A stretch of DNA of 32,000 nucleotides from Candidatus Thorarchaeota archaeon (GCA_003345555.1 PRDJ01000073.1:1-32000); one strand, 5' to 3'; positions 1,574 through 21,129 are shown, counted from the first letter of the stretch. Program-made: numbers and translations. Notes: generated by a model not told the origin, from the sequence alone.

Positions 1574-2878
1574 TTGAGAAGAAATGCTGGACTGCGGAGT
1601 ACGGTGGCTCCGCTGCTCATCATCTTGTTCCTCTGCACTACGATGTCTTGCTTTTCAGCTGTGTCAGGGCGGTCCGACATAAACGAAATCGTGCCATCGT
1701 CCCAGAGGAATATCCCTCCTGACTATTGGCCCACAGAAGGCTGGAGGAACAGCACGCCTCAGGAACACGGGATGAACAATGAAACCCTTTACGACATGGT
1801 GCGGCTGATAGATGCCCAAGACTATCCCGTTCTCTCGATTGTCATCGTGAAGGATGGTTACGTCGTCTTTGAGCAGTATTTGAGCGAGTATCTCACTGCG
1901 CAATACCGTCACCTCCTTCACTCGGTCACGAAGAGCTTCACTGGTGCACTGATTGGAATCGCCTTTCAGCAGGGTCTCCTTAGTGGAGTCAATGAGACAG
2001 TCCTTAGTTTCTTCCCCGAGTACGAGATAGCCAATCCTGACCCTCGAAAGGACCGGATGACAATCGAGGATCTCCTCACAATGACCCCCGGTCTGGATTG
2101 GGACGAGTGGTCAACTCCCTACGTTGACCCGGATACCAATACACTCATGGGCATGATGTACAGTTCCGACGCGGTGAAATTCGTTCTAGACCGTCCCATG
2201 ACCTCAGAACCCGGGACTACTTGGACCTATTGTGGAGGCGCGTCCGTCCTACTTGGTGCAATCATCCAAAAAGTGTCGAATAGCAGTACACTGGAATTCG
2301 CTCATGAGTACCTCTTTGATCCTCTAGGATTCGATTATGGGACCTGGTATCTATTACCTGGCGGCTGGTACAACACTCAAGGAGGACTCAGGCTCACAAC
2401 ATTGGACATTGCGAGACTTGGGTTCCTTTACCTCAATAATGGCACATGGGATGGGACACAGATACTCCCAGCTGATTTCATCGCTCAAGCAACCAGTCCT
2501 ATTGATATCCCAAATGCACTCGGTGAACCATTTGGATATGGTTGGCATTGGTGGACTCGTTCGGACCTAGGAGTTTATTTCGCATATGGGCGATACGGTC
2601 AGAAGATCATGGTTTCGCCTGAGCACGACTTGGTGGTAGCTTTCAATGCGATGGTTCCGGATGATGGGTATGACCCTGAGTTCGACCTTTTCAGGGACTA
2701 CATTCTGAAGTCTATTGAAGAAGGGCCAGACAAAAGCGGAACTGACTCGATTCCCATTCAACTATACGTGGCTGGGCTCGTCCTAAGCGTCACCATGATT
2801 CCATTGATTGCTGCAGCGGTCTATGTATCAGTTGCTAGATTCCAGCACCGGAAACCCCTATCACCGGAAACCCCCTGA
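1574..2878 (+). CDS. Membrane-anchored serine hydrolase, beta-lactamase/AmpC (class C) family
   Basis: SxxK motif 'SVTKS', 'LLTMTPG', 'PGTTWTYCGG', 'GGLRLTTLDIARLG' and 'AYGRYGQ'. N-terminal signal-like segment and C-terminal TM helix. TTG start with purine-rich AAGGGAGG upstream. Confidence 0.9.
   Translation: MRRNAGLRSTVAPLLIILFLCTTMSCFSAVSGRSDINEIVPSSQRNIPPDYWPTEGWRNSTPQEHGMNNETLYDMVRLIDAQDYPVLSIVIVKDGYVVFEQYLSEYLTAQYRHLLHSVTKSFTGALIGIAFQQGLLSGVNETVLSFFPEYEIANPDPRKDRMTIEDLLTMTPGLDWDEWSTPYVDPDTNTLMGMMYSSDAVKFVLDRPMTSEPGTTWTYCGGASVLLGAIIQKVSNSSTLEFAHEYLFDPLGFDYGTWYLLPGGWYNTQGGLRLTTLDIARLGFLYLNNGTWDGTQILPADFIAQATSPIDIPNALGEPFGYGWHWWTRSDLGVYFAYGRYGQKIMVSPEHDLVVAFNAMVPDDGYDPEFDLFRDYILKSIEEGPDKSGTDSIPIQLYVAGLVLSVTMIPLIAAAVYVSVARFQHRKPLSPETP
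2846..2874. repeat. 13-bp direct repeat CACCGGAAACCCC x2, spanning the 3' ends of two convergent overlapping genes
   Basis: Exact copies at 2846-2858 and 2862-2874, separated by TAT. Confidence 0.9.
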
Positions 2879-4990
2879 TACACAAGCCGAGTGACATGCT
2901 GAGTGACATGCCGAGTGGCAGACACATGCTGAGTGACACGCCGAGTGGCAAGCTGAATGACATGCATCATGCGAAACACATGCACTGTGACACGCATCAT
3001 GTTGTACGCATCGACTGGTGCCCTCAAGAATCGGTTTCAGCGGTTCAGTGATTATCTTGCCGACGTTCTCTACCACTTTCCCGATCGTTGAAGCCACATT
3101 CGAGATAATCTGAGCGGTTGCCTGTCCTACGTCTCCCACGGCTCGTCCGATATCAGATATTGCTTGCCCGGTTGCCGTTGAGATGTCTCCAAACCAAGTT
3201 GGCACCTGTGGTGGGGCGGCACCGGACTCGGGGTGAGAGAATGAATCGTGAATGTAAGTATCGTGATGGGGGCTCATGTAGAGCCAATACCACGCCCAGC
3301 CATGATACGATCCACTGAAGTAGTAATCTGAACGAGCATCAATCGTGGGATTGGACTGTAGCTCTTCCCAAGCCCCCTCAGCAAGCTTCTCATGCTCGGC
3401 CTTTGTGGCTTCGAAGTCGGCCTGCCAAGACTTCTTCTGCACTTCATCAGCGAGACGCTCCACTAAGTCGTCCAGCTTCTCGGCATCAAACTCATCATCC
3501 ACGACAGCATCAACGAGCATCTGCTCATAGTAGGTCAGCTCCTCAAGCTGTATTCCAGTGACAGACACTTTGAGCGGGTCAACAGACAGAACCCTCAGTG
3601 CTCCTTTCTTGACGCAGGACATCAGTATCATAGAGACTATCTTTTGCCTGCTCTCATTCACAAAGAAGGCGGACTCAACTGGGTCGAGCTCGGCGATCGT
3701 TCCGGGCGTGCCAAGTGTCTGGATAGCTATCTCAGGTTTCTTGTAGACGCCTGTGGTTTCGTCAGGCTCCCACCTCGCTCCATAGTGAGAAGTCACCTTC
3801 TTGTAGCCATAGTATGCAATTCCTGCGAATGCTAGGACTCCGAACCCAAGAATCCACGCGCTTGGAGGAATCAACGGTGGTATGTATTCTGTGACGTAGA
3901 CGTTTACTGTGAACACGAGCCACTCCGACGCATTCAGACTAGATGATGATACTTGGAAGGTCACTGGCAGGATTGCCGGCACATTTGCAGGCACGAATTC
4001 GTACGTTAGGAACTGGCCCTCACCTCCAACCAAGGCACCCAGAAATGTTGAGACCTCACCGGAGGTCATGGTCAGATTGATGGGGACTGCCACCGAGACA
4101 GTCACATCCTGCAAATCTGCGTCACCGATGTTGTATACGCCAAAATCGACGTTGAATGGTATATTGGCTTGGGCGTCGATATAATTCACGGCATCAGACC
4201 ACAACGCACCCGGTTGAACATAAGGGGCATAGAATGACCAGTTCGTATAATGGAATATTCTCAGATGCTCCTCAGTGTTGGCGGGGTTTGCGGTCAGACT
4301 AACACTGAAGTTTCTGGGCGAGGCCAAGGGATTGGAGGGGTATGCCAAGAGACTGTATGAATCGTAGCTTCGTTCACTGCCTCCGCTCCATATTCCCTGA
4401 CGAGAGTCCACAACATACCCAGAGTAGTTTGCACCTTCCTGAGTTATTCCTCCTTCCCCACTTATCCACGAAGGCTGCATGACTATTGGGTATATCACGC
4501 GGACGTTCTCGATATCGACCGTCTGAAACCATTGCACCGGTGCCCAATTGAAGACTCCCAAATCCAATGTCTGTTGGATTATGCGGCTCGTACTGAAATA
4601 CCCGAAGACGACGGTGACCGTCTTGCCACTTTCTGTACGCGGAGTCCAGTCTAGACCATATCCTCCTGACTTGGTCGTTACAATAAGACTGTACTTGGTG
4701 CCGTCCATCTGGACATAAGCCCGATCAGGGTCGTATGCATTCGACTCTTGAATGCCAAGCAGGTCGAAACCCCCGAGCGAGCCACTGATTACCGAGAAGT
4801 TCATCCAGTATGTAACATTGATTCGCCCGTTTAGAAGGACAACCACGTCAACGAACACGCCATCGATATTCACGACTGAACTCTGACTCGGTACAGCTGC
4901 CGTACTGAAAAGGGGCATCAATAATAGTGCAGAGAGCACCACAACCGAGCCGAGCAAAGGCCTACGACCGGACAACAACCTACTCTTCAT
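2861..4990 (-). CDS. Large membrane protein: DUF2207-like/Ig-like extracellular region, TM, TIGR04222-like cytoplasmic domain, Cys/His-rich C-terminal repeat tail
   Basis: ORF 2861..5026 with likely ATG at 4990 (MKSRLL). It has an N-terminal hydrophobic signal, a beta-rich region including CARDB-like 'VYNIGDADLQDVTVSV', TM 'AWILGFGVLAFAGIAYYGY', then 'ELDPVESAFF...ILMSCVKKGALRV...ELTYYEQMLVDA', and ends in (CHSA)n. Confidence 0.85.
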   Translation of the reverse strand: MKSRLLSGRRPLLGSVVVLSALLLMPLFSTAAVPSQSSVVNIDGVFVDVVVLLNGRINVTYWMNFSVISGSLGGFDLLGIQESNAYDPDRAYVQMDGTKYSLIVTTKSGGYGLDWTPRTESGKTVTVVFGYFSTSRIIQQTLDLGVFNWAPVQWFQTVDIENVRVIYPIVMQPSWISGEGGITQEGANYSGYVVDSRQGIWSGGSERSYDSYSLLAYPSNPLASPRNFSVSLTANPANTEEHLRIFHYTNWSFYAPYVQPGALWSDAVNYIDAQANIPFNVDFGVYNIGDADLQDVTVSVAVPINLTMTSGEVSTFLGALVGGEGQFLTYEFVPANVPAILPVTFQVSSSSLNASEWLVFTVNVYVTEYIPPLIPPSAWILGFGVLAFAGIAYYGYKKVTSHYGARWEPDETTGVYKKPEIAIQTLGTPGTIAELDPVESAFFVNESRQKIVSMILMSCVKKGALRVLSVDPLKVSVTGIQLEELTYYEQMLVDAVVDDEFDAEKLDDLVERLADEVQKKSWQADFEATKAEHEKLAEGAWEELQSNPTIDARSDYYFSGSYHGWAWYWLYMSPHHDTYIHDSFSHPESGAAPPQVPTWFGDISTATGQAISDIGRAVGDVGQATAQIISNVASTIGKVVENVGKIITEPLKPILEGTSRCVQHDACHSACVSHDACHSACHSACHSACVCHSACHSACHSACVSGGFR
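2864..3010 (-). repeat. Coding tandem repeat: 7 x CHSA plus 2 x CVxHDA (11 Cys, 9 His in 49 aa)
   Basis: Direct translation is CVQHDACHSACVSHDACHSACHSACHSACVCHSACHSACHSACVSGGFR*. The 12-nt units differ at synonymous positions. Confidence 0.95.
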
Positions 4991-5084
4991 TCGTCGCACA
5001 CCGCCCGCGAAAGAGGGATTGGCCAACGCGAGTGTATCGTCTTGTTCCGTGAATCATTTAGTAACAGTCTGAACCACTGATTTC

Positions 5085-5480
5085 TCACTGGCCTTTTCTG
5101 GCCCGAAGCATTTCTGCCTGCGCCGCGGTAAGCTCCGACAAGTCAGCTTTTGCGGTGGCCCACTCTGCCATTTCTGGAAATGCATCAATCATGCCACTCC
5201 AGACGACGTGATATGCTTTCTTCAGAACAACCGCAGCATCCGAATCCTTTCCAACATACTCGAAGAAGCACTTCACCATGACTGGTGTCTGATCCGACAC
5301 ACTGGATGGTACCTCTGTGCCAAAGCCTGCAAAGGCTACATCCAGTTCATGCAGAACGTCAAGCCTCTCCCGTAGACCAGCTGCGAGAACCGGCAGGTCA
5401 ATGTCGTAAGCGCTGAATTGCATAACCAGTTTCTTGCCACTGATTGTGCCGTACGGCAGTCTAGATTCGCTCGAACTCAT
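5085..5480 (-). CDS. Hypothetical 131-aa soluble protein, upstream of and co-oriented with the CHSA-tail protein
   Basis: ATG-started ORF with protein-like alpha/beta composition that fills the gap between neighbours. No family recognised. Confidence 0.75.
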   Translation of the reverse strand: MSSSESRLPYGTISGKKLVMQFSAYDIDLPVLAAGLRERLDVLHELDVAFAGFGTEVPSSVSDQTPVMVKCFFEYVGKDSDAAVVLKKAYHVVWSGMIDAFPEMAEWATAKADLSELTAAQAEMLRARKGQ

Positions 5481-5492
5481 AGCACGATGACT

Positions 5493-5566
5493 CCAGTATT
5501 ATGCTGGTTATGTGTCCAGTCTAGAGGTTGATAAGCCTTTCAGCTGAAGGTGCTGGTTCAGAACCA
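5493..5566. promoter_or_regulatory. Divergent promoter region with three short inverted repeats
   Basis: CCAG-n7-CTGG (5493-5507), TTCAGCTGAA (5539-5548) and TGGTTC-A-GAACCA (5554-5566) lie in the 119-bp gap between divergent starts. Confidence 0.3.
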
Positions 5567-5599
5567 TTAAGAGGATTCGCGCTCTTTCGGGAGGCAGAC

Positions 5600-7021
5600 A
5601 TGGAAGCCCCCAGCTATAGTTACACTCTCGACGATCTTTCGTGGGTACCGAAGTTCATGAATGAAGTAAAGGACTTCTTCTTTGCTAGGTCCGAAGACAA
5701 CCTGCTGATTCTCAGACCCAACAAGACGATGCACCTTAATGAAAGCGCCATGATCATGCTAAAGATGCTTCTCGATGGAAAAGAGCCGGCACATGTTGTT
5801 GAACACTTCGTGAAACACTTCAACGCAGAGCAGCAGACTGTCTTGAATGACCTTGCCGCATTCGTCGAGGATCTCAGGAGGATGACGGTTGGGGACCAGA
5901 ACATACTTGCTTACAAAACAGCGAGAATCATCCCGTTTGGTTCGGCCGAGATAAGGTATCCAGTTCTCAGTGAGATTGCACTCACGTATCGATGCAATAA
6001 CAAATGCAAGTTCTGCTATGCCTACTCTCCATACCGGGAATCAAAAGAGATGTCCACAGAGGAAGTCAAGCACGCAATGGACATCATTGTGGACGATGCA
6101 CATGTTCCCAGTCTCTCTTTCACAGGAGGGGAACCTACCCTTCGCGACGACGTGTTTGATTTGATATCGTACGGTCGCAAGAAAGGACTCCGAATGAACC
6201 TCATCACCAACGGTCGTAGATGTGCAGAGACCTCCTTTGTGGAGCAACTTGTCGCAGCAGGTCTCAACAGCGCGCAGGTTTCAATTGAGGGGCCGAACGC
6301 TCGTATCCATGACTCGATTGCAGGAGTTGAAGGTGCTTTCGAGCAGACAGTGAAAGGCATCAAGAACCTCAAGAAGAGCGGCATCTACACTCACTGCAAC
6401 TCAACTATCTGCAGGCTGAATGTTGATTCCCTGACAGACCTTGTCGACTTCCACGCAGACGAACTTGGCCTAACATACTTCAGCATGAACATGGTAATCT
6501 ACACGGGCACAGCTGCCAAGCTGCGAAACGAGCTGATGATATCATACTCACAGATTGGAGACATTGTCAGACTCGTGAAACATCGCGCGAACAAGAAGGG
6601 ACTGCAGTTCGTTTGGTACGCACCAACACCCGTCTGTCTGTTCAATCCTATTGCTCACGGGCTCGGCGCCAAGAGCTGTGCCTGCTGCGATGGCTTGCTT
6701 TCTGTTGATCCTGAGGGCGGCGTCCTGCCATGTTCAAGTTTCAGTGAACCTGTTGGAAACATACTCAGAGAAGGATTCGATAACGTTTGGCAATCAAGGG
6801 CGGCCCGGTTCTGGCGTGCAAAGGATTTCGCTCCTGAAGGTTGCAGGGCCTGTAGTCACTTTGCCTATTGTACGGCTGCGTGTCCTCTCTATTGGGACGT
6901 GTTTGGATACGAGGAAATCAGACCCTTCTGGCCTGAAAAGACTAAGGTAGGGCGGGCAATCGACGACGCAAGACTGAGTCTAAGAAGAAAGACCAGAGGA
7001 AGCCAGCACGGGATTACTTAG
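5600..7021 (+). CDS. Radical SAM/SPASM protein with N-terminal PqqD-like RiPP recognition element (peptide/protein-modifying maturase type)
   Basis: CxxxCxxC 'CNNKCKFC', 'SFTGGEPTLR', 'ITNG' and 'QVSIEG'. SPASM cysteines 'CACC...PC...CRAC...CTAACP'. N-terminal 'HLNESAMIMLKMLLDGK...V..DL..FV..L' is PqqD/RRE-like. ATG at 5600 with GGGAGG upstream (the ORF track starts at 5528). Confidence 0.93.
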   Translation: MEAPSYSYTLDDLSWVPKFMNEVKDFFFARSEDNLLILRPNKTMHLNESAMIMLKMLLDGKEPAHVVEHFVKHFNAEQQTVLNDLAAFVEDLRRMTVGDQNILAYKTARIIPFGSAEIRYPVLSEIALTYRCNNKCKFCYAYSPYRESKEMSTEEVKHAMDIIVDDAHVPSLSFTGGEPTLRDDVFDLISYGRKKGLRMNLITNGRRCAETSFVEQLVAAGLNSAQVSIEGPNARIHDSIAGVEGAFEQTVKGIKNLKKSGIYTHCNSTICRLNVDSLTDLVDFHADELGLTYFSMNMVIYTGTAAKLRNELMISYSQIGDIVRLVKHRANKKGLQFVWYAPTPVCLFNPIAHGLGAKSCACCDGLLSVDPEGGVLPCSSFSEPVGNILREGFDNVWQSRAARFWRAKDFAPEGCRACSHFAYCTAACPLYWDVFGYEEIRPFWPEKTKVGRAIDDARLSLRRKTRGSQHGIT

Positions 7022-7034
7022 GCAACCCGGCGGT

Positions 7035-7751
7035 CTACTGGACTCCTGCTCGGTTTACGATGACTCGACCACAGTAGGGGCAGGTCTCCTCCTCACCGGG
7101 CAGAACAGGCTTTGCTAGCTTGCCACCGCAGAAGGGGCAACTTGTGACGGATTTCGGCAGCTGTGATACTGCTTCTGATGTGAGAGCGACTCTGGAGTTT
7201 TCATCAATTACCCCGCGGAACTTGCCCTCCTTCGACAGCTCTCTGAGAGCCCCAACAATCTGCTCATCAGTCGCTTCTGTGACGGCAGATATCTGATCGA
7301 ACGTCATTCTTCTTTGAGCAAGAAGCAAGTGAAGAAGACTCTCCTTGAGAGTGACCGCACGAGGGCTGACGATTTCCCATGCTCGCTGGTCAAGGTACAC
7401 TAGCGGTATCTGGCGCCTAGCCAGCTTCTCGGCCGCTTCGGAAACCGCTTGAGGATCGAGCTTCAGTTCCCTTGCTGCCGCATCAACACTTATCCGACCC
7501 TGTTTCTGGACAAGTGGAATTAGCTGGGCTGATACATCGCTGACTCGACTCTCTCGCCTTCCTCTAGATAAAAGCCAGAGACCGATTGCAAGCTCTGGGA
7601 GCCCAAGGATGCCCCATGCCACGATACCTGAAATCAGCCTTACTCCTAATTCGGGCGACACATCTGCAGTTGCAGTGTATACCAGATAAACCATAGCTAG
7701 AGATAGTATCACCAAAATGATACCAAGTAGTTGTACAAACCTTGGGTTCAC
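7035..7751 (-). CDS. Membrane protein: 2 TM, tandem winged-helix/PCI-like domains, C-terminal zinc ribbon
   Basis: Two N-terminal hydrophobic helices, then 'GRISVDAAARELKLD' and 'RRMTFDQIS...IVGALRELSKEGKFRGVID' (HTH-wing patterns), then 'CPFCGG...CPYCG'. GTG start. Confidence 0.72.
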   Translation of the reverse strand: MNPRFVQLLGIILVILSLAMVYLVYTATADVSPELGVRLISGIVAWGILGLPELAIGLWLLSRGRRESRVSDVSAQLIPLVQKQGRISVDAAARELKLDPQAVSEAAEKLARRQIPLVYLDQRAWEIVSPRAVTLKESLLHLLLAQRRMTFDQISAVTEATDEQIVGALRELSKEGKFRGVIDENSRVALTSEAVSQLPKSVTSCPFCGGKLAKPVLPGEEETCPYCGRVIVNRAGVQ

Positions 7752-7886: not shown

Positions 7887-8303
7887 ATGGTCATAGACAG
7901 AGAGGGAGCAACTAGTGCAATAATCTTGCGCCTAAACACTGGGAAACCCGTGGAGTTCCCAGCGGAGTTTGTATCTGACATAGGGGAGAAAGCTGCCCTC
8001 ACCGTGTTGCATCACAAGGACAAAGTCGTCAAGCTATTTCCTGTTTCCAGTGACGTTATCTACCTTCTGAGAATCGAGATTAGCGATCTCTCACGCAACT
8101 TCCTCAAGCAGCTCAACTTTGCATTTAACGATGCTAAGTTGAATGACATCATTTTCACGACTGGCGTTTGCCTAAGGGGAGAACGCTGTTACTACGAGTG
8201 TTATTTCGTGCCCGATCAGCTGGTCGTGACCTTGCGGGAGCTGGAGGATAGCCTCAAGAAAATCCCCGGTGTCTCAAGGGTAGTGTTACGCAAGGTAGAC
8301 TAG
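7887..8303 (+). CDS. Small protein with AbrB-like N-terminus and ACT-like C-terminus (putative regulator)
   Basis: 'KPVEFPAEF...KVVKLFPV' resembles a swapped-hairpin fold and 'LRIEI.D....L..L...F...LEDSLKKIPGVSRV' is ACT-like. TTTTATTA TATA-like element at 7830-7837. Confidence 0.6.
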   Translation: MVIDREGATSAIILRLNTGKPVEFPAEFVSDIGEKAALTVLHHKDKVVKLFPVSSDVIYLLRIEISDLSRNFLKQLNFAFNDAKLNDIIFTTGVCLRGERCYYECYFVPDQLVVTLRELEDSLKKIPGVSRVVLRKVD

Positions 8304-9814: not shown

Positions 9815-11524
9815 ATGCCAAAGCCATCCAATCCACTAATCGTACAGTCTGACAAGTCTGTTCTGCTTGAGGTCGACAATCCCCTCTACGAGAAGGCGAG
9901 GGACTCCTTGGCCCGTTTTGCAGAACTAGTCAAGAGCCCAGAGTACGTCCATACATACAGGATTACACCCCTCAGCCTCTGGAATGCAGCCGCAGCAGGG
10001 ATGAAACCGGATGCCGTCGTACAGGCTCTTGAACAATACGCCAAGTATCCCATTCCAGGTAACATTGCTCGCGAGATCCTCGACTATATGAGCCGGTATG
10101 GCCAGCTGTCGCTTCTGAAAGAGGGAGACAGGCTCATTCTCTCATGTGCGAACGATGATCTTGCCGAAGAGATTTGGGCTAACACGAAGGTCCGGGAGCT
10201 TCTGTTAGACAGACTAGACAAGACTAGGATGCTCGTAGATCCAGCTCAGAGAGGTTTCGTCAAACAGATACTCCTTGATTTCGGCCATCCCGTTGACGAC
10301 ATTGCGGGATACGTCAAAGGTGAGGAACTGCCCTTCGAACTGCGTTCTACCACCCTCGGGGGAAGACCATTCAAGTTGAGGGCCTATCAGCAAGATGCTG
10401 CGGCCACGTTTTATGCAGGTGGAGGAATAACAGGAGGCTCGGGCGTGGTCGTGCTGCCATGCGGATCCGGAAAGACAATGGTGGGCATGGGCATCATGCA
10501 CGAACTCCAGACCTCAACTCTGATATTGTGTCCCAACGTTGTTGCAGTGCGTCAGTGGATAGCAGAACTGCTCGACAAGACCACCCTCACGCCAGAGCAA
10601 ATAGGAGAATATACTGGCGACAACAAGAACGTGCGCCCTATCACTGTCGCAACCTACCAAATACTAACGTGGCGCAGGTCGAGGGAGGAAGAATTCGAGC
10701 ATTTCAAGATCTTCGAGGCCAGAAAATGGGGTCTAATCATATACGACGAAGTGCATCTTCTTCCTGCCCCAGTATTCAGAGTGACTGCATCCATACAAGC
10801 GACAAGGAGACTAGGCCTCACTGCAACACTTGTCAGGGAAGATGAGAGGGAAGAAGACGTCTTCAGTCTCATAGGGCCAAAAAGGTACGACGTTCCGTGG
10901 AAGCAGCTTGAAGATCAAGGCTGGATTGCAACTGCAGTCTGCTATGAGATTCGTGTAGATCTACCTGACAGTCTGAAGCGGAAATATGCAATCGAGGAGG
11001 ATCGGAGGAAGTACAGGATTGCAGCGGAGAACCCGGTCAAGCTGGAAGTGCTCCTCAAGATAGTAGCTCACCACCAAAAGGACAACATCCTCATCATAGG
11101 CATGTACTTGGATCAATTGAAGATCATCGCTGATGAACTGGAAGCCCCACTGATTACGGGAAAGACAGGCAACGACGAGCGCCAGGAACTGTACGATGGC
11201 TTTCGTCATGGAAAAATCAAGACGCTTGTCGTATCCAAGGTCGCCAATTTCGCTCTGGACCTTCCCGATGCAAATGTGGCAATTCAGGTATCCGGGACAT
11301 TTGGTTCGCGTCAGGAGGAAGCTCAAAGACTGGGGCGAATCCTCAGACCCAAGGTAGACGGCAGTCTGGCGCGCTTCTACTCTATCGTCACGAAGGATAC
11401 TCGTGACATGGACTTCGGGGCAAAGAGACAGCTGTTTCTGACCGAACAAGGATACCAGTACGTCATAGCATCTGCAGATGAAGAAGTCTGGAAACAGGCA
11501 CCTGAGTCCCTTTGTGCTGTCTAG
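9815..11524 (+). CDS. xpb: XPB/Ssl2/Rad25-type SF2 DNA helicase/translocase with N-terminal clutch (Helicase_C_3-like) domain
   Basis: N-terminal 'PLIVQSDKSVLLE...RFAELVKSPEYVHTYRITPLSLWNA', then 'LRAYQ', Walker A 'LPCGSGKT', 'IIYDEVH', 'LGLTATLVRED' and 'SRQEEAQRLGRILR'. Likely ATG at 9815. Confidence 0.95.
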   Translation: MPKPSNPLIVQSDKSVLLEVDNPLYEKARDSLARFAELVKSPEYVHTYRITPLSLWNAAAAGMKPDAVVQALEQYAKYPIPGNIAREILDYMSRYGQLSLLKEGDRLILSCANDDLAEEIWANTKVRELLLDRLDKTRMLVDPAQRGFVKQILLDFGHPVDDIAGYVKGEELPFELRSTTLGGRPFKLRAYQQDAAATFYAGGGITGGSGVVVLPCGSGKTMVGMGIMHELQTSTLILCPNVVAVRQWIAELLDKTTLTPEQIGEYTGDNKNVRPITVATYQILTWRRSREEEFEHFKIFEARKWGLIIYDEVHLLPAPVFRVTASIQATRRLGLTATLVREDEREEDVFSLIGPKRYDVPWKQLEDQGWIATAVCYEIRVDLPDSLKRKYAIEEDRRKYRIAAENPVKLEVLLKIVAHHQKDNILIIGMYLDQLKIIADELEAPLITGKTGNDERQELYDGFRHGKIKTLVVSKVANFALDLPDANVAIQVSGTFGSRQEEAQRLGRILRPKVDGSLARFYSIVTKDTRDMDFGAKRQLFLTEQGYQYVIASADEEVWKQAPESLCAV

Positions 11525-11599
11525 AATCCGTGGAGTCCAGCCACCCTGAGCATGTCTTCTGCCGGACCTTGGACTGATTGTTCTGTTTGACAGAATGGG

Positions 11600-12541
11600 T
11601 CAGGTTTGCCTTGTCACCAAGATGGACCTCAGGTAATCCATTTTCTCGTGAATATACCCTAAGACTCTGGGCCCGATATCAGGGGTCACAACCTCAGGCT
11701 CAATCATTTCTCTCTCGAGATTGGCCAAGAAGCATATACTCCAACCGATAGCTGACATTAGAGCTAGCGGCACGAGAGCCTGAATGATTGCGGCCTCTTC
11801 ATAGCTCTTGAAGACACCATCGGGGACATGGTGGTGGGTTGCTCCCTCGGCCTGACTGACGAGGTAAGCTAAGTCTAGAAGCGGTTCTCCGATGCTGCAC
11901 GATCCCAAATCCAGCAACAGGACCCTATCCGGCTGAATTATGATGTTCGACTCCTGTAGGTCTCCGTGCATAGTCCTGCGGGACCAGACGCATGCAGCAT
12001 CGATGCTGCTTCCGAGTTCCTTCGCGGTCACACCAAAGAAACCTGCTGCGGCCGCTAGCTGAGGCGAGAAACCGGTGGAACCTTTCTTGCTACGAAGGAC
12101 TTGGTCCGTGATGTGTTTCAGATACTCGGAAGGCTTCTTGTAGGACTGAACTCCTCGTGGATGCAGCTGTGACAGAATCAAAAGCGCCTGCCGCATTTTT
12201 TCCAAACCAGATGCAGGAATTTGGTCAAGGGATGAAGGTATAGTGCCCTCAGCGTATTCCGCTATGATGAAAGGGGTTCGGAACTCATCATCAAGACGAT
12301 CACATTGAATCGGCTTGGGACAAAGGTCTCTGCGGCGCAGGAAATTCATGACTTCGTATTCGTAACTATACGGGTGTGCCTTATGAGGACCCTTGAGCAC
12401 TGGCAACTTCAGAATGTAACGTTGTCTTGGCGTTCGGGCAATCAGAGAAACACTGTCCCAGCCGCCATGGGGTGCAGAATCGAGAGTAAGCGAATCACTG
12501 CCACGCCATGCTTTGTTGACCAACCTGCCGAGTTCACTCAT
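11600..12541 (-). CDS. Aminoglycoside phosphotransferase/choline kinase (APH) family protein
   Basis: Gly-rich 'HGGWDSV', 'YILKL', Brenner motif 'HGDLQESNII', 'LLDLG' and 'GEPLLDLAYL'. Likely start at 12541 (ORF extends to 12658). Confidence 0.8.
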   Translation of the reverse strand: MSELGRLVNKAWRGSDSLTLDSAPHGGWDSVSLIARTPRQRYILKLPVLKGPHKAHPYSYEYEVMNFLRRRDLCPKPIQCDRLDDEFRTPFIIAEYAEGTIPSSLDQIPASGLEKMRQALLILSQLHPRGVQSYKKPSEYLKHITDQVLRSKKGSTGFSPQLAAAAGFFGVTAKELGSSIDAACVWSRRTMHGDLQESNIIIQPDRVLLLDLGSCSIGEPLLDLAYLVSQAEGATHHHVPDGVFKSYEEAAIIQALVPLALMSAIGWSICFLANLEREMIEPEVVTPDIGPRVLGYIHEKMDYLRSILVTRQT

Positions 12542-12661
12542 GTCATGACCGTGTACTTTGGAGATTCTTACCCTCACAGGCCTTTCACCCCAAGAAACAA
12601 ACATGTCTGGAATCTCTCGACCACAAGAGCCCGCTTTCTGGGCCGCTCCACAGTCCAAGCA

Positions 12662-13789
12662 TTAGACTTTCTTGCCTGACAAGATATCCCCTATTGACGC
12701 CAGCAATGCCGACAGATGGATGAAGGGGTTCTTACCTTGTTTCATTCGGAAATCGATTTCAGCAGTCCTCTGCACCAGTGCGTTTCGTGTCGTCTCGTCA
12801 AGTGACCTCACAGCGATTTCCCTCTGAATCTGAAGACACACCTCGTCCGGAGTATACCCCTCGACGGCCAACAACTGTTTCATCAAGTCTCTGGATTCAC
12901 CAAAGGAACCCTTTGCGGCCAAGGAGACCATACGGCGCACAGCGCTCACGATTCGAGACTCGGAGCATTCATAGACGATGTCTTCGGTGACCTTGGTCAC
13001 ACCCGCTGCTGAGATTTGAAGAAGGTTCAGGGCACGTCGCATATCACCTGATGACTCTTTAGCGATGGCGGCGAAGGCGGTATCATCTACCTTGAGGCGT
13101 TCTTTCCCAGCAATGTCCTGCAGGAGCCTCATCACGGTCTCGCCTGATAAGGCGGGAAACCTGAGTATCAAGCATCGAGACAAGATTGCAGGACTCCAGC
13201 CCGTCAATGATGGAGTGATTAGTATGAACCGGCAGGCATCGCTGTACATTTCCATAGTCCTGCGGAGCGACTGCTGCATACTCGTATCGAGAGCATCGGC
13301 TTCGTCGAGGACTAGGTACTTAATCATCTCATTGCTCAGAGTCATTGTGGAAGCAAACATCCTGATAGCTTCGTGCAAGAGTTGACCCTTGTTCGGCTCG
13401 CGAGAGCGGCCCTTGAGAGCAATACCAGTCTTTGCTTCACGATATACTGCAGACATGAACTCATCCAATTCAGTACGCTCGCTTCGGTCCAGTTTTGCCA
13501 AAGCCGTTAGGTCACGCTTAGCTTTTGCGACTGATATATCCTTCAAATCGCGAATATTGAGATACTGGAAGTTTTCTGTGAATGTGTCCCCCAAGAGATC
13601 TCTGGCGAACACCTGGGCAGCACATGACTTACCTGTTCCAGGTGGCCCAAGGAATATCATGTTGTGCGCGGTCTTTGACCTAGCAAGGCCTCTCAACTGG
13701 CCAATAGTATCATCTTGGCCAACGAACTCATCCCACGTATGTGGGGCGTATTTGATAGACCAGAGAACTGGCTCCAACCATCGCACCAA
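12662..13789 (-). CDS. rfcS: Replication factor C small subunit homolog with an internal insertion
   Basis: 'WSIKYAP..WDEFVGQ', Walker A 'GPPGTGKS', Walker B 'LDEADAL', 'QQSLRRTMEMY', 'SRC' and 'GDMRRALNLLQ'. Confidence 0.88.
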   Translation of the reverse strand: MVRWLEPVLWSIKYAPHTWDEFVGQDDTIGQLRGLARSKTAHNMIFLGPPGTGKSCAAQVFARDLLGDTFTENFQYLNIRDLKDISVAKAKRDLTALAKLDRSERTELDEFMSAVYREAKTGIALKGRSREPNKGQLLHEAIRMFASTMTLSNEMIKYLVLDEADALDTSMQQSLRRTMEMYSDACRFILITPSLTGWSPAILSRCLILRFPALSGETVMRLLQDIAGKERLKVDDTAFAAIAKESSGDMRRALNLLQISAAGVTKVTEDIVYECSESRIVSAVRRMVSLAAKGSFGESRDLMKQLLAVEGYTPDEVCLQIQREIAVRSLDETTRNALVQRTAEIDFRMKQGKNPFIHLSALLASIGDILSGKKV

Positions 13790-13927: not shown

Positions 13928-15670
13928 ATGTCGAAGGAAACGCTCGAACAGGAGCTTGAGCACCTTCTAAGAGAGGACCTTCTTGCAGCCTGCCAGTTCT
14001 GGGGAGTACAGGTGACTGGTACTGCCTCAGGGACATCGCTCGTCAAACTCCTTGCTGAGAAGATGAAATCCAAAGAGGGCCGAGACCGCACCTTCCATTC
14101 CTTTGACCAGAAGGAAACCGACCTGCTCGGAATGCTCACCCTCAGCGGAGGAGCAATGAGCTATGACAGGTTAAAGCCGTACAGGAAAATCTATAGCTAC
14201 GGCCAACTGAACCAAACTGAGAGAGATTTACGAAAGAAGGGTGTTATTGTCAGACGCGTAGTCTCTAGGCTCACAGAATATGGTCGGGAAGTCGCCGAGT
14301 TCAAAATCCTCGACTTCCTTGTCCCTCATCTGGTTAGATTCTTCTCGGAGAAGCCCACACCTGTGACCGAGAAACCAAAGTCAATCAGAACAACCATCGA
14401 CTACAGAGACACGCTCTTGGTTGACATGCTCCTCCTTGTGTCCTACCTTGCCAAAGAAGATGTGAAGATGACATCCTCTTGGGAGTTCCCGAGCCGGGAC
14501 ATCGATCGCGTTATGCAGGCCATGTCGGAGCCCACGACTGACCGGTTTGACCTTGTCCAGAAGGCGGCACGCAAGACGGGTGCATATTCCATCATCGAGA
14601 GTGATAAGGCCGTTCCCTCCAAGGTTGACGTATTGTTCGCCGGACCGCAGGAGCAAGTGGCTCGACGGGTGCTGTTCTCAGCGCTAGGCCGCTCCAGAGC
14701 GATATGGGCAACACCTGACCAGCCGACAGAATACACTCTCAACCTTGCGATATGCCGACTGCGTGAGTGCACCGTTAAGGACTGGATTAGTATCACGGAG
14801 CTTCGTGATTGGATTCGCGCAGAGCTGTTTGTCGACAATCAGCCATTGAAGTGGATTCAAGTCGACGAAGACCGGGTCAGCACAGCTCTAGAGACTCCTG
14901 TTCTGCTTGGCCTCCTACAGGCCGCATACAAGGGAAAGAAAATCCAAGCAGTCAACTTGACACCAGTCGGCGCAGCCGTCATCGCAAATCAACCCCTTCC
15001 TCCGGCTGAGAGCAGGGAATCATTCTTCGTTCAGCCGAACTTCGAGATTACAGTATTCACATCCGAGATGGATTACTACAAGCTATACCAGCTTATGCTT
15101 TTCGCCGAACCAGTTAAGACTGATGTCGTAAGCACACTCAGGATTACAGACAAGTCAGTGTTTCAGGCAATAGAGATGGGTCTCAGAGAGAGAGACATTC
15201 TGGGATTCCTCGAGAAAGAGAGCAGCAAGCCAGTCCCGGCGAATGTCGTCCGCTCAGTCAAGGATTGGGTCTCCCAAGCCACATTCGTCACGATTTCCCA
15301 AGTGTACATGTTGGAGACGGATAACGAGAAGGACCTCGAGAAGCTCATGCTCATCGAGGATTTCAGACAGAGCGTTGTGAAGAAAGTGGGACCAACGGCA
15401 GTAGTACTACAGGGCGATGTCGACAATCTGGCCGAGGATCTTCGAAAGCACAAATGCAACATCACGAGGGCCGATAAGAAAAAGGCGGAACTGGAAGTTA
15501 CTCCAGGTGCTGCAGTAGCTGAGCAGGTTTTACTCTATGGAGACCAGACAGTGACTGATGCTCCTGCGAACTGCATGGGTTGCCCGGCCCTTCAGTCCTG
15601 CAACAAGGTGGTCAAACGTAAGCGCGGGCATCATGAGGAGAACGTGAGTGAAGAAACCGATACTTCCTGA
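13928..15670 (+). CDS. XPB-associated protein with Helicase_C_3/Tfb2(p52)-like clutch domain
   Basis: C-terminal 'FFVQPNFEITVF...LMLFAE......LRITDKSVFQAIEMGL....ILGFLEKES..PVPANV...VKDW' has the same pattern as the XPB N-terminal domain and the p52 clutch. N-terminal helix-extension-helix-like segment, and terminal CxxCxxxxxC. Confidence 0.78.
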   Translation: MSKETLEQELEHLLREDLLAACQFWGVQVTGTASGTSLVKLLAEKMKSKEGRDRTFHSFDQKETDLLGMLTLSGGAMSYDRLKPYRKIYSYGQLNQTERDLRKKGVIVRRVVSRLTEYGREVAEFKILDFLVPHLVRFFSEKPTPVTEKPKSIRTTIDYRDTLLVDMLLLVSYLAKEDVKMTSSWEFPSRDIDRVMQAMSEPTTDRFDLVQKAARKTGAYSIIESDKAVPSKVDVLFAGPQEQVARRVLFSALGRSRAIWATPDQPTEYTLNLAICRLRECTVKDWISITELRDWIRAELFVDNQPLKWIQVDEDRVSTALETPVLLGLLQAAYKGKKIQAVNLTPVGAAVIANQPLPPAESRESFFVQPNFEITVFTSEMDYYKLYQLMLFAEPVKTDVVSTLRITDKSVFQAIEMGLRERDILGFLEKESSKPVPANVVRSVKDWVSQATFVTISQVYMLETDNEKDLEKLMLIEDFRQSVVKKVGPTAVVLQGDVDNLAEDLRKHKCNITRADKKKAELEVTPGAAVAEQVLLYGDQTVTDAPANCMGCPALQSCNKVVKRKRGHHEENVSEETDTS

Positions 15671-16682
15671 ACAGTTGATAGGGCATTTCCTAGGAGTTGG
15701 CAGTGTCGGTGAGACTGACCCAAAAGCTCCTCTCGCCTACGTAAAGTCATTGCGAGTACCCTACGCCTATGAACTACCGAGGCTTAGAGAAGAAGACATG
15801 ATCAGGCGGTTCGCCGCGCTCGTGGATGGGTTCGAGGATAAGGGCGATTTCGTCATGGACATCGATATGTACGTGTACCGGGACATCACCGAGGACGATT
15901 CGCCTCTCTTGCCCGACGAAGCCCATGCACATAGCCTGTACCTGATGACCCAGAATGCATCCTACAATCTCTTCAAGACGCAGCAGCCGGCTCCAGGCAC
16001 GATGTGTTTCAGCACGCGGGGAATCGACGGTAGGCAGCTCGTATCCCGAGCAATGTTTCACCTCTACTCTTCTTTGATGTCAAGGGCAGCCATGGGTCAA
16101 ATGAAGCATCTGTCCCAGTGTTGCAAGAGTATCATACTGTGCCAGGATGATCCTGCACTTGGGTTCGTGTCAAAGATGCTACATGAAGGAAAAGGAGAAG
16201 ACCTAACCTTAAGACAGATTGTTCAGAGTACTGAGAGAGTCTACCCGGTCAATTCGATACCTGCCTACCATTACTGTGATGACTGGAGAGGACTCATCGA
16301 AGACGATTGGTATGTCCTGTGGGACGGTCAGCCAAGAATCAATCACATCGACTTGGTATCATTCAAGCCTGAGATAGAATCCGACCATGCAGAGAGACTG
16401 AATTCATTCCTAGAAAGGGGAGGAAGCATTGCCCTGGGAGTCCTACCGAATGTCGACAGTGGCTATTCCAATCCTGTAGTTGAGACGCTCAGGCAGAATT
16501 TGGAAAAGACGCTGCAATTGCTACACGACAGCGGCGTGGATTTGGGTCTCTTGAGTGACCGAGCCATGATCTCAACTCAATGCGGGCTCTCGAGCGCAAG
16601 CAGCTCGCTGTGTAGAGAAATACATGAAAAGAGCAAGGAATTCCCCACTGTCTTCCGGAAAACGATCAAGAGCTTCATTTGA
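15648..16682 (+). CDS. UROD/MetE-superfamily protein (single-barrel cobalamin-independent methionine synthase-like)
   Basis: N-terminal 'GVGSV', 'QDDPAL', Zn-ligand-like HxC ('HYC'), 'GSIALGVLP' and terminal 'STQCGLS'. Overlaps the upstream gene by 23 bp. Confidence 0.62.
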   Translation: MKKPILPEQLIGHFLGVGSVGETDPKAPLAYVKSLRVPYAYELPRLREEDMIRRFAALVDGFEDKGDFVMDIDMYVYRDITEDDSPLLPDEAHAHSLYLMTQNASYNLFKTQQPAPGTMCFSTRGIDGRQLVSRAMFHLYSSLMSRAAMGQMKHLSQCCKSIILCQDDPALGFVSKMLHEGKGEDLTLRQIVQSTERVYPVNSIPAYHYCDDWRGLIEDDWYVLWDGQPRINHIDLVSFKPEIESDHAERLNSFLERGGSIALGVLPNVDSGYSNPVVETLRQNLEKTLQLLHDSGVDLGLLSDRAMISTQCGLSSASSSLCREIHEKSKEFPTVFRKTIKSFI

Positions 16683-16718
16683 GAAAGTAGCTCGACCGTC
16701 TTCAGCGGTTCACGAGAT

Positions 16719-17600
16719 ATGCTTAATAAAGGCACGAACGGCGCTATCTCGAACGCAGTGGTGCCGCCCATGGCTGAGTCCGTCAAGAAACCGGGTAGGG
16801 TGATGAGCTTTGTTCAGCAGTACAGGCTCAAGATGCTCATCCCTGAACTGCTCGTTGTCTTTGCTGTATGGTACATGAGCCCAAGTTCGCCAACGACAAA
16901 CGTCTATCTGCTTCTCGGGCAGTTCTCCATAATCGCCCAGCCACTGTACTCCATTCCGAGCGGATTGTTGCTTCTTATGACGGCGTTCATGTTGCATGGG
17001 ATTTATCCGTTGGACAACTACCATGAAGGCAAGATTCCGTCACTTCCAAAGGCAGCCGTACCGATGATTCTCCTAGCCTTCTTGTTCTTGCCGCTCTTGG
17101 TGACGCTCCAGATGATGGGATATTTCATGACAGAGGCCACAGAATACCTCGGTCGAAACCCACTCTGGGAACGTGTGGAGAGTGTCGGTGATTTGTTCTT
17201 CTATGCTGGGCCAATGTTCTTCGTAGCATTTCAGTGGTGGCTCTTCATTCCCGTCTTGTTCTTGTCAGAAGCAGTGGATGGTATACACAAGATAGCCCAC
17301 CATGAGACGTCCAGTGTGAAGGTAGCTGTAGTATTCTACTTCCTATGGCCCGTTTCAATGCCGTTCTTCTTCGACCCAGTTGAGATCATGGCAATGGCGG
17401 CCTTATCCATTCCGGCCTTCGCTTTCTACTCCTACATCAGGCCCTATTATGCATACGTCACTGCTGTACATACTCTGACATTTGCTCTTCTCGTGGTAGT
17501 AACGATAGTCCTAGGACAGTGGATGCCTTTCGTAAACATGTGGTTCCCTGGATTCATACCACCGCATGTTCCACCGAGAATCTGGCCACCAATATTGTAG
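16719..17600 (+). CDS. Polytopic membrane protein, possibly a degenerate CPBP/Abi-like family member
   Basis: About 7-8 hydrophobic segments. 'Y.YIRPYYAYVTAVHTL' resembles the CPBP HxxxN region but the EExxxR motif is not evident. Pro-rich C-terminus. Confidence 0.5.
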   Translation: MLNKGTNGAISNAVVPPMAESVKKPGRVMSFVQQYRLKMLIPELLVVFAVWYMSPSSPTTNVYLLLGQFSIIAQPLYSIPSGLLLLMTAFMLHGIYPLDNYHEGKIPSLPKAAVPMILLAFLFLPLLVTLQMMGYFMTEATEYLGRNPLWERVESVGDLFFYAGPMFFVAFQWWLFIPVLFLSEAVDGIHKIAHHETSSVKVAVVFYFLWPVSMPFFFDPVEIMAMAALSIPAFAFYSYIRPYYAYVTAVHTLTFALLVVVTIVLGQWMPFVNMWFPGFIPPHVPPRIWPPIL

Positions 17601-17607
17601 TTATGGA

Positions 17608-17910
17608 TCAATTCATGCTCGCTGAAGTTGGTTTCCGTGTAGCTTCCTCAATGTCTTCCTCACGTAGCTTGTGCTTGAACGGTCTGCCCTGGCCATAGAT
17701 CGTAGGGTCTTCGTTCCTCGTCTTTGACATGATGGCGGTGAAACCGATTATCTGGACCACCAAGGCGGCCATGCTGATGAGGAAAACCTCGGTGAAGTAC
17801 TCGTGAGAAAAGAGTCTGAAGAACCATATGGTGGGATACGCGAAAGCTTGGACTATTATCCCTGCCAAGAGCATCATTACCCACCTGTTCGTCCAGTTGG
17901 CACGAGCCAT
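17608..17910 (-). CDS. Small two-TM membrane protein with charged C-terminal tail
   Basis: 100-aa ATG ORF with two hydrophobic helices, co-oriented with the three upstream paralogs. Confidence 0.62.
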   Translation of the reverse strand: MARANWTNRWVMMLLAGIIVQAFAYPTIWFFRLFSHEYFTEVFLISMAALVVQIIGFTAIMSKTRNEDPTIYGQGRPFKHKLREEDIEEATRKPTSASMN

Positions 17911-17988
17911 GCATTGGCAACCTCATTAGAAGTTCTGAGTTGTGCCGCTCGGGCGTGCGATAGTTAAAGATAGCTGTGACGTCAATCT

Positions 17989-19921: not shown

Positions 19922-19955
19922 ACTGCCTCGTCACTAGAACGCGCTTACTGGACAG

Positions 19956-20984: not shown

Positions 20985-21129
20985 CCACGAACCGTCCTTC
21001 ACTGTTGCGACACAATTCTGGCATCTTTAAGCGTTGCGCGCCGGCCATGAGTCCGGCAGGCACGCCTCCATACTGTGAGACGAATGTGCCGACCTATTGT
21101 GCTGTCGGTTCTTGCGACCTACGACAACA

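Follow-up and report, generated by a model that had tools for sequence, protein, structure and literature searches.

To our knowledge, radical S-adenosylmethionine (SAM)/SPASM maturases are known almost only from short peptides, and thioethers in whole proteins from a few soluble cases (QhpC and, in 2026, CrpA). Two repeat-based systems, that of the CXXX repeat (TIGR04117/TIGR04115) and that of the ACGX repeat (TIGR04340), are, as far as we know, predicted by curators and uncharacterised. Here, we analysed a 32,000-nucleotide stretch of DNA from Candidatus Thorarchaeota archaeon (GCA_003345555.1, PRDJ01000073.1:1-32000; hereafter, the window), where the gene of such an enzyme stands near the gene of a membrane protein that ends in a Cys/His repeat. 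Thorarchaeota are Asgard archaea. We consider it probable that both genes belong to a four-gene protein-modification module, that its core pair is widespread in bacteria, and that the tail of the membrane protein is the substrate of the enzyme.

Two described systems come close to this locus. In Methanococcus voltae, CrpC –an enzyme with a RiPP recognition element (RRE; RiPP: ribosomally synthesised and post-translationally modified peptide), a radical SAM domain and a SPASM domain– installs thioethers (ranthionine) on CrpA, from Cys to a residue a few positions downstream, as reported in 2026 (PMC13692751). CrpA is a soluble 28.8 kDa protein whose repeat unit has 17 residues and whose N-terminal region is leader-like, and its binding by CrpC is thought to use the RRE together with domain-domain contacts; QhpD is cited there, through QHNDH, as the precedent for in-protein thioethers (PMC13692751). 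For membrane proteins with a TIGR04222 domain, the Cys-rich C-termini were proposed in 2025 as substrates of MNIO enzymes (PMC12452194). A first-pass annotation of the window, which described the TIGR04222 tails as having no known modification, was therefore out of date on this point.

For the pair described here, a search of the literature and of family models found no paper that describes it, and no Pfam or NCBIfam family for either partner. What appears to be new is a radical SAM/SPASM maturase that acts on a Cys repeat borne by an integral membrane protein, with CrpC/CrpA and TIGR04222/MNIO as the nearest published systems.

Results

The tail-bearing, predicted single-pass membrane protein is encoded on the minus strand (2861-5026) by an open reading frame (ORF) of 721 amino acids (aa) whose first codon is TTG; translation more likely begins with the ATG of residue 13 (4990), for a protein of about 709 aa. 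Its C-terminal 50-residue tail (2864-3013, minus strand) is an (Ala-Cys-His-x)n repeat that ends in GGFR and is the presumed substrate, or 'core', of the enzyme; the (CHSA)n sequence quoted in the first-pass annotation is exact. The PqqD/RRE-radical SAM-SPASM enzyme lies on the plus strand (5600-7021, 473 aa from the ATG at 5600), and its orthologs align from this ATG and not from the ORF opening at 5528. By six-frame reading, the module genes at 2861-7751 are four: the membrane protein, a 131-aa orphan, the divergent enzyme, and a protein with transmembrane (TM), winged helix-turn-helix (wHTH) and Zn-ribbon parts. All four ORFs are thus present as first described, with a two-gene unit, a divergent enzyme gene and a downstream Zn-ribbon gene.

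Seen from the enzyme side, all 16 loci with enough flank in the host's own family have the tailed gene and the 131-aa gene adjacent to the enzyme gene (enzyme orthologs at 67-86% identity). In another family of the phylum (G029), an enzyme homolog 41-43% identical is followed by a 924-aa homolog of the membrane protein with a related CHSA tail. Enzyme homologs of Anaerolineae (~50% identity) stand directly after a ~577-aa protein of the same architecture with an almost identical tail, and the enzyme gene is there followed by the genes of a ~390-aa coiled-coil protein and a 164-aa TM-wHTH-Zn-ribbon protein. One locus (L036) is without the tailed gene, which is found elsewhere in the same genome (398.5 bits).

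Starting from the tail instead, we searched one genome per species with a degenerate DNA pattern for (CHSA)3C and obtained at least 120 matching stretches. The phyla among the matches listed are Chloroflexota, Planctomycetota, Spirochaetota, Myxococcota, Acidobacteriota, Thermodesulfobacteriota, Gemmatimonadota, Omnitrophota, Verrucomicrobiota, Nitrospirota, Bacillota, others, and Thorarchaeota. We fetched 80 of these loci for reading, and 73 ORFs in them end in the motif, each being a 500-930-aa homolog or a fragment of one. For 54 ORFs, at least 1.5 kb of downstream sequence was available; a full-length enzyme homolog is present in the locus of 47 of these, and in 43 it comes immediately downstream, on the same strand. 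The seven exceptions are three Thorarchaeota loci whose divergent enzyme gene lies outside the fetched 8 kb and four loci whose genome carries a family enzyme elsewhere (543-607 bits). The proposed check, co-occurrence around enzyme homologs, is therefore positive from both sides (16/16 and 47/54, with the exceptions explained). What changed is the range: the system implied to be archaeal is mainly bacterial, in many phyla, with Desulfobulbus alkaliphilus DSM 24258 (L102) as a cultured carrier.

Four matches (L038, L074, L090 from Streptomyces, and L094) were rejected as true tails, being in other frames or in other repeats (CHCA, CHWA). In the Anaerolineae locus L033 (5309-5987), a HEPN-domain gene and the gene of a 105-aa partner stand between the tailed and the enzyme genes and look like an inserted toxin-antitoxin-like pair.

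The gaps that separate the module genes measure 58, 119 and 13 bp. We read the module gaps of 14 loci in six frames for a separate short precursor and discarded every candidate: cross-locus matches were mostly plain DNA conservation among close relatives, and none was both Cys-rich and conserved. The matching gaps of 13 related loci held no conserved Cys-rich small ORF, which bears out the earlier remark that no short precursor ORF is visible nearby.

The tail is the most striking part of the membrane protein. Its 50 residues contain 11 Cys and 9 His, with 0 Cys in the ectodomain and 1 Cys in the rest of the cytoplasmic part, and it is near-invariant in 14 orthologs though the whole proteins are 52-86% identical. 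We compared the last 50 codons of 15 orthologs with the preceding 50. In 46 of the 50 tail columns the variation is synonymous only, and four change the residue; mean protein identity reaches 98% in the tail vs. 63% before it, nucleotide identity 73% vs. 62%, and third-codon-position identity 0.39 vs. 0.31. Tandem Repeats Finder reported only a degenerate 12-nt period in the tail, with 69% matches. A tail conserved at 98% in protein, with free codon variation and a degenerate DNA period, therefore points to strong selection at the protein level, and the tail is held by this selection rather than by chance or as a DNA repeat.

Within the repeat, Ala, Cys and His are invariant and the fourth position varies (S, D, N, G), so that no single acceptor residue is singled out. 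We take the C-x-x-x-D units of the tail to resemble the PapB motif.

The membrane protein has orthologs in 18 family genomes (52-86% identity) and homologs across bacterial phyla, with conserved motifs over the full length. An AlphaFold2 model built on an alignment of 48 homologs has a mean predicted local distance difference test score (pLDDT) of 78.9. It consists of an N-terminal helix at residues 22-41 (signal or anchor), a beta-rich domain at 51-379 with pLDDT >90, a TM helix at 388-412, a disordered linker, a winged-helix/helical domain at 449-600 (pLDDT 81-96), and a low-confidence C-terminal region that includes the tail. On the DNA, the predicted extracellular beta-sandwich ectodomain (residues 42-387) covers 3866-4903 and the TM helix 3791-3865, both on the minus strand; the hydropathy peak of the latter is at residues 385-404.

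Hydropathy gives two peaks only, the N-terminus is basic (5 K/R in 21 residues), and seven of the eight N-x-S/T sequons are in the ectodomain, with one inside. Because of these two helices, the basic N-terminus and the distribution of the sequons, the tail is placed on the cytoplasmic side, where the radical SAM enzyme would work. The topology first proposed –signal, extracellular part, one TM helix and cytoplasmic tail– agrees with the AlphaFold2 helices, the hydropathy and the sequons.

The window protein has no match in Pfam (at E <= 1) or NCBIfam. Among its bacterial homologs, the one of L033 scores below threshold with DUF2207 N (PF09972; 20.8 bits vs. a cut-off of 24.4) and with TIGR04222 (24.2 vs. 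43, E 2.2e-5, residues 307-421), and the one of L049 with DUF2207 C (PF20990; 18.6 vs. 33). The top fold matches in AFDB are DUF2207 proteins (E 1e-13 to 2e-10). Therefore, the protein is a distant relative of the DUF2207 superfamily: of the tie to DUF2207/TIGR04222 made earlier, the distant kinship stands, by these sub-threshold hits and the fold likeness, and membership by hidden Markov model (HMM) does not. A profile search with the membrane protein found 1,035 clusters (50% identity) at E <= 0.001; at the stricter E <= 1e-30, 183 remain. Clusters whose match reaches the profile's last positions have, as their C-terminus, a CHxA repeat or a Cys/His sequence close to it.

The fold search with the ectodomain also returned ribophorin I/OST1, a subunit of the eukaryotic oligosaccharyltransferase (OST): 8b6l_O at E 5.3e-9, 6s7o_E at 1.2e-7, the yeast 6ezn_A at 7.3e-6, and an AFDB entry named OST subunit 1, with low TM-scores of 0.18-0.31. 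In an Asgard archaeon, this modelled likeness may deserve a domain-by-domain comparison.

In the enzyme, all three Pfam domains pass their cut-offs: PqqD (PF05402) with 33.3 bits vs. 23.4 at residues 61-118 of the 497-aa ORF, Radical_SAM (PF04055) with 93 vs. 29.5, and SPASM (PF13186) with 32.9 vs. 21.5. Across 53 homologs, C132/C136/C139 of the CxxxCxxC motif (5993-6016, plus strand), seven SPASM cysteines (C346, C360, C378, C415, C418, C424 and C428; 6635-6883, plus strand) and residues R30, D33 and N47 of the RRE (about 5675-5881, plus strand) are invariant. The architecture attributed to the enzyme is thus correct, and the HMM check of its RRE succeeds on both the Pfam PqqD cut-off and the invariant core residues.

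Curated families give another picture. No NCBIfam model reaches its cut-off with the enzyme, the best being AhbD (148.6 bits vs. 500). The sacti- and ranthisynthase models PapB (NF047865; 86.5 vs. 340), AlbA (NF012164; 81.6 vs. 850) and StsB (NF045574; 94.4 vs. 625) stay below cut-off, as does SkfB (TIGR04403; 80.1 vs. 300), which was measured on the bacterial homolog of L033. The ACGX-system model TIGR04340 gives 89.6 bits vs. 400, the CrpC family TIGR04463, named rSAM_vs_C_rich, 61 vs. 525 (G000:C73:5975-6889) and the CXXX-repeat maturase TIGR04115 34.3 vs. 350; the CXXX-repeat target model TIGR04117 (cut-off 50) does not match the window's membrane protein and gives 10.5-15.5 bits with the bacterial homologs. 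The bacterial enzyme homologs likewise reach no curated cut-off. With scores this far below, we rejected membership in TIGR04463, TIGR04115/04117, ACGX, PapB, AlbA, StsB and Tes. With the Pfam domains passed and all NCBIfam cut-offs missed, the enzyme therefore has a peptide-maturase architecture outside the curated families. The nearest solved structures by sequence are PqqE (E 1.8e-20), SkfB (1.4e-16) and CteB (1.3e-9). From the catalytic-site proximity profile (PMC10288494), only positions 1, 2 and 4 were placed, by motif, as Tyr140, Thr175 and Ser228.

For a complex model, we combined the enzyme, SAM, three 4Fe-4S clusters and the 420-721 part of the membrane protein, giving both proteins as alignments. 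The interface score (ipSAE) was 0.84 (0.83-0.84 in three runs), compared with 0.00 for the highest-scoring of three controls; at least 33% of contacts are common to the runs, and the partner pLDDT is at least 62. The contacts of lowest expected error join enzyme residues 36-53, 84-91 and 107-113, the strand-helix groove that is canonical for an RRE, to residues 429-437 of the membrane protein. These lie within the juxtamembrane segment 425-439 (3710-3754, minus strand), which the model presents as the docking site of the RRE, a leader-like recognition element; its consensus W/Y-x-x-P-x-I-x-x-x-T/S-F is found in all 48 aligned homologs, with P431 invariant. A second patch sets the helical domain (516-542, with the invariant W534) against the SPASM side of the enzyme. 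From this model, the two proteins very probably bind each other. Of the RRE binding first proposed, the binding is supported, and the docking falls on 425-439 instead of the SDYYF... or PQVPTWF... segments.

At the module level, the four genes share one phyletic pattern: all of them are present in 19 of 25 family genomes, and none was found in the other six. The next gene (7887-8303) has an ortholog in four of these six (G010, G013, G015 and G016; 91-98% complete). In these four, the right-hand synteny (p138, RIO kinase, XPB helicase and beyond) is intact and 4-9 kb of contig extend to the left, and all four module genes are missing. This joint loss with synteny kept therefore delimits a four-gene module, with its right boundary between 7751 and 7887. 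G012 keeps a Zn-ribbon ortholog on a contig other than that of the enzyme.

The gene of the 131-aa protein (5085-5480, minus strand) immediately precedes that of the membrane protein and shares its operon. The protein is conserved in 18 further genomes of the family (60-88% identity), and three bacterial loci (L053, L080 and L084) have a homolog of it (37-41% identity) immediately ahead of the tailed gene. Its model (pLDDT 85) is ACT-like (alpha/beta) with two C-terminal helices; the fold search returned no PDB match at E <= 0.001 and only weak ACT-like and HxsD-like matches (E 2e-3 to 2e-2).

The Zn-ribbon protein (238-aa ORF; 7035-7751, minus strand) has two N-terminal hydrophobic helices, two wHTH-like regions and a C-terminal CPxCG...CPxCG ribbon, which is invariant across orthologs. 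Its HTH and Zn-ribbon Pfam matches are sub-threshold only. By hhalign, the archaeal and bacterial TM-wHTH-Zn-ribbon proteins align with a probability of 83.5% (E 8.3e-6) and are probably homologous. It had been put forward as a possible fourth component; sharing the phyletic pattern and deletion boundary of the other three genes and having a probable bacterial counterpart, it is now a probable one.

In 40 fetched bacterial loci (including L045, L082, L085 and L113), the enzyme gene is followed by that of a ~313-aa multi-pass membrane protein, which has no Pfam match and did not turn up in the Thorarchaeota loci. Two loci, L046 and L085, have a ~313-aa gene directly after the tailed gene, with no enzyme gene between.

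A maximum-likelihood tree of 56 enzymes contains three well-supported clades. One is that of Thorarchaeia (support 100/99). Another unites Chloroflexota, Myxococcota and Sumerlaeota, with coiled-coil and Zn-ribbon partners in the loci and tails that end in ...SSF, ...SRF or ...GSF. The third is large and covers many phyla; its tails end in VSGG-x-H/R and its loci carry the ~313-aa protein after the enzyme. The clades match tail endings and accessory genes, and thus these three features change together. The mixture of phyla within the large clade is what one would expect of a mobile cassette. The tree has the (Cys-Ala)n-linked paralogs as its outgroup and does not settle the order of the three clades.

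These paralogs belong to a sister system, in which membrane proteins of 555-591 aa end in (Cys-Ala)n-GGGR (L030:1177-2844 in G025; L031:9877-11652 in G028). The enzymes are RRE-rSAM-SPASM (rSAM, radical SAM) paralogs 30-35% identical to that of the window, and in G025 two enzyme genes flank the tailed gene. As in the window, a homologous or analogous membrane protein with a C-terminal Cys repeat lies next to a paralogous enzyme; the tail differs in being without His and in having a period of 2 instead of 4, and the enzymes form a separate clade. We found no paper on the (Cys-Ala)n-GGGR system. In L031 and L032, an ORF of ~235-250 aa follows the enzyme gene, and a methyltransferase is suspected.

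Other observations concern the surroundings of the module. The tailed gene and a convergent beta-lactamase-family gene (1574-2878, with a C-terminal hydrophobic anchor) overlap at their 3' ends by 18 bp (2861-2878). In several other family genera, a Cys-poor ORF of ~105-110 aa lies on the module strand between the 131-aa and the tailed genes, with 37-40% identity across genera (L015:3428-3786, L019:6244-6596, L021:7593-7938, L027:7667-7994, L028:5778-6131); the window has only the 58-bp gap there. Most other genera carry, between the enzyme and Zn-ribbon genes, a ~380-aa gene with an RPHIKTHK motif (L017:9767-10918, L019:8628-9779, L020:9884-11059 and others), which is absent from the window's genus and from G006; its product presumably resembles the alanine-racemase-fold, D-serine dehydratase-like enzymes that use pyridoxal phosphate. 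This ~1.2-kb gene has no BLAST similarity to the bacterial coiled-coil or 313-aa partners and was set aside as an unrelated insertion.

In the closest relative (L013; G003:C3, ~10085-13465), the orthologs of the Zn-ribbon gene, of 7887-8303 and of the XPB gene are each split into two ORFs, which suggests frameshifts or assembly errors. Elsewhere in the window, 15648-21002 holds five consecutive ORFs of 293-348 aa that have no Pfam match at E <= 1e-4 (15648-16682, 16719-17600, 17989-18954, 18947-19921 and 19956-21002).

Discussion

We suggest that the module could work as follows. The membrane protein would be inserted with its beta-rich ectodomain outside and its winged-helix/helical domain and tail in the cytoplasm. 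The enzyme would be recruited through its N-terminal RRE to the strand-like segment 425-439 below the membrane, as RREs bind leader peptides, and the cytoplasmic helical domain would pack on its SPASM side. The flexible tail, ~240 residues downstream of the docking motif, could then be fed into the active site, with the enzyme acting repeatedly. By analogy with CteB, PapB and above all CrpC, each Cys thiol would be joined to a carbon of a nearby residue, which would build many small thioether rings at -2 Da each; the assignment of the links as thioethers is tentative.

The product would stay attached to the membrane protein, and the module has no protease or exporter. The system is probably RiPP-like in its working, with a modified protein rather than a released peptide as its product. 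The 131-aa and TM-wHTH-Zn-ribbon proteins would be accessory partners, perhaps a chaperone and a membrane-anchored binding or signalling partner.

A bolder extension, which we hold to be doubtful, is that the tail is made into a permanent, enzyme-built prosthetic structure: a ladder of crosslinked rings with nine imidazoles, possibly beyond sactionine and ranthionine chemistry, with the Zn-ribbon partner binding metal or relaying a redox or envelope signal. If true, this would be a new class of post-translationally built membrane-protein module, in Asgard archaea and more than ten bacterial phyla.

Several points weigh against the tail as a crosslinked substrate. The chemistry is putative for every member of the system, and the pair is known here from its genes and a binding model. 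PapB (86.5 bits) and AlbA (81.6) score no better than AhbD, NirJ and PqqE (130-149), and therefore the scores favour no reaction type. The complex model gives no confident contact of the tail, and thus supports binding and not catalysis on it. Solved RRE-leader complexes exist, and part of the score may reflect likeness to them. Of 80 solved complexes, 58 reach the score mark for such models, as do 2 of 110 mismatched pairs; these counts are only a rough calibration here, as our model used its own alignments and riding ligands. Moreover, adjacent genes are inherited and lost together, so the phyletic pattern within a single family is weak evidence by itself. Finally, a Cys/His repeat at i/i+4 spacing is plausible as an unmodified metal site, and such a site would explain the conservation on its own.

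This last point leads to the main rival, which we judge unlikely: the tail would be an unmodified cytoplasmic metal-binding element (Zn, Ni, Cu(I) or Fe-S), and the enzyme would use the membrane protein as a scaffold or regulator while acting elsewhere, on another residue, a lipid or a small molecule. At i/i+4 spacing, the Cys and His of the tail (11 and 9) would all point to the same side of a helix, and AlphaFold2 does draw the tail as helical, at pLDDT <50. The complex model is confident for the RRE and the helical domain and not for the tail, and by HMM the enzyme scores best with cofactor enzymes (AhbD, NirJ, PqqE) rather than with peptide crosslinkers. Expression of the CrpA cluster rises on pyrite, and the authors of that study suspect that metal is bound (PMC13692751).

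However, metal sites rarely need 50 near letter-perfect residues, Ala and Ser included, across genera. The enzyme clades follow the tail types, with CHSA tails of different endings on one side and (Cys-Ala)n tails with 32-35% identical paralogs on the other, and the enzyme has an RRE, an element known from peptide and protein substrates. As for a lipid target, we rejected a lipid-modifying radical SAM enzyme of the Tes/GDGT-MAS type on the Tes score (74.3 bits vs. 450), the presence of the RRE and the wide bacterial distribution, with carriers in many bacterial phyla that are not known for tetraether lipids.

It is quite improbable that the tail is a true RiPP core, cut off a giant-leader membrane protein and released as a free Cys/His-rich peptide. 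The layout is that of a leader and core, with the recognition motif upstream and the repeat at the extreme C-terminus, and a low-confidence Gly/Ala-rich linker (~600-670) precedes the tail. The ~313-aa multi-pass protein of the 40 bacterial loci could be a protease or exporter. However, this protein has no Pfam match and was not observed in the archaeal loci, and the Thorarchaeota module contains no protease, peptidase or ABC exporter. The ectodomain and cytoplasmic domain are conserved over the full length, which a mere leader would not need, and from a cytoplasmic tail, release alone would give no export.

That the linkage is inherited synteny of functionally unrelated neighbours is hardly credible: although the synteny of the family runs past the module to p138, RIO kinase and XPB, so that adjacency inside one family proves little, more than ten phyla have the pair, among neighbours that otherwise differ, the four genes are lost as a block while the flanks remain, the Zn-ribbon gene kept by G012 is unlinked, and the complex model scores 0.84 vs. 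0.00 for controls.

A tail modified by its neighbouring enzyme would matter in several respects. The substrate would be a cytoplasmic tail that belongs to an integral membrane protein with a large ectodomain, and the modelled recognition motif lies far from the repeat. If shown, the modification would name a large orphan enzyme family and explain the invariant Cys/His repeat at the inner face of the membrane. The membrane-protein family, with about 1,000 clusters, spans many anaerobe-rich phyla.

Comparison with known systems

The maturases of sacti- and ranthipeptides with an RRE (CteB/SCIFF, PapB, AlbA, SkfB and StsB; PMC10288494) share the domain architecture of the window's enzyme and act on Cys-rich substrates with short spacing. 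They differ, together with QhpD, in that their substrates are free peptides or a small soluble subunit.

The CXXX-repeat system, like that of the window, joins a radical SAM/SPASM maturase to a target with a Cys-x-x-x repeat, and no NCBIfam model other than TIGR04117 gives any match in the tails of the bacterial homologs (E 0.013-0.5). The CXXX and ACGX targets are peptides of ~100 aa, whereas the carriers of the window's type are membrane proteins of 500-930 aa.

The TIGR04222/MNIO systems also have a membrane protein with a low-complexity Cys C-terminus and, next door, a RiPP-type enzyme proposed to modify it. However, the partner is an MNIO (DUF692) and not a radical SAM/SPASM enzyme, and the tails are Ser/Gly-rich with scattered Cys and predicted to be periplasmic. 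The tail in the window is a strict A-C-H-x repeat and cytoplasmic by prediction, that is, on the opposite side of the membrane.

Finally, CrpC/CrpA is likewise an archaeal RRE-rSAM-SPASM enzyme beside a Cys-repeat protein, with a whole protein as its substrate. CrpA is soluble, whereas the window's protein is an integral membrane protein with an ectodomain, and its repeat has 17 residues vs. four (A-C-H-x) here. The leader-like region of CrpA is N-terminal, and the modelled recognition motif of the window's protein lies beside its TM helix.

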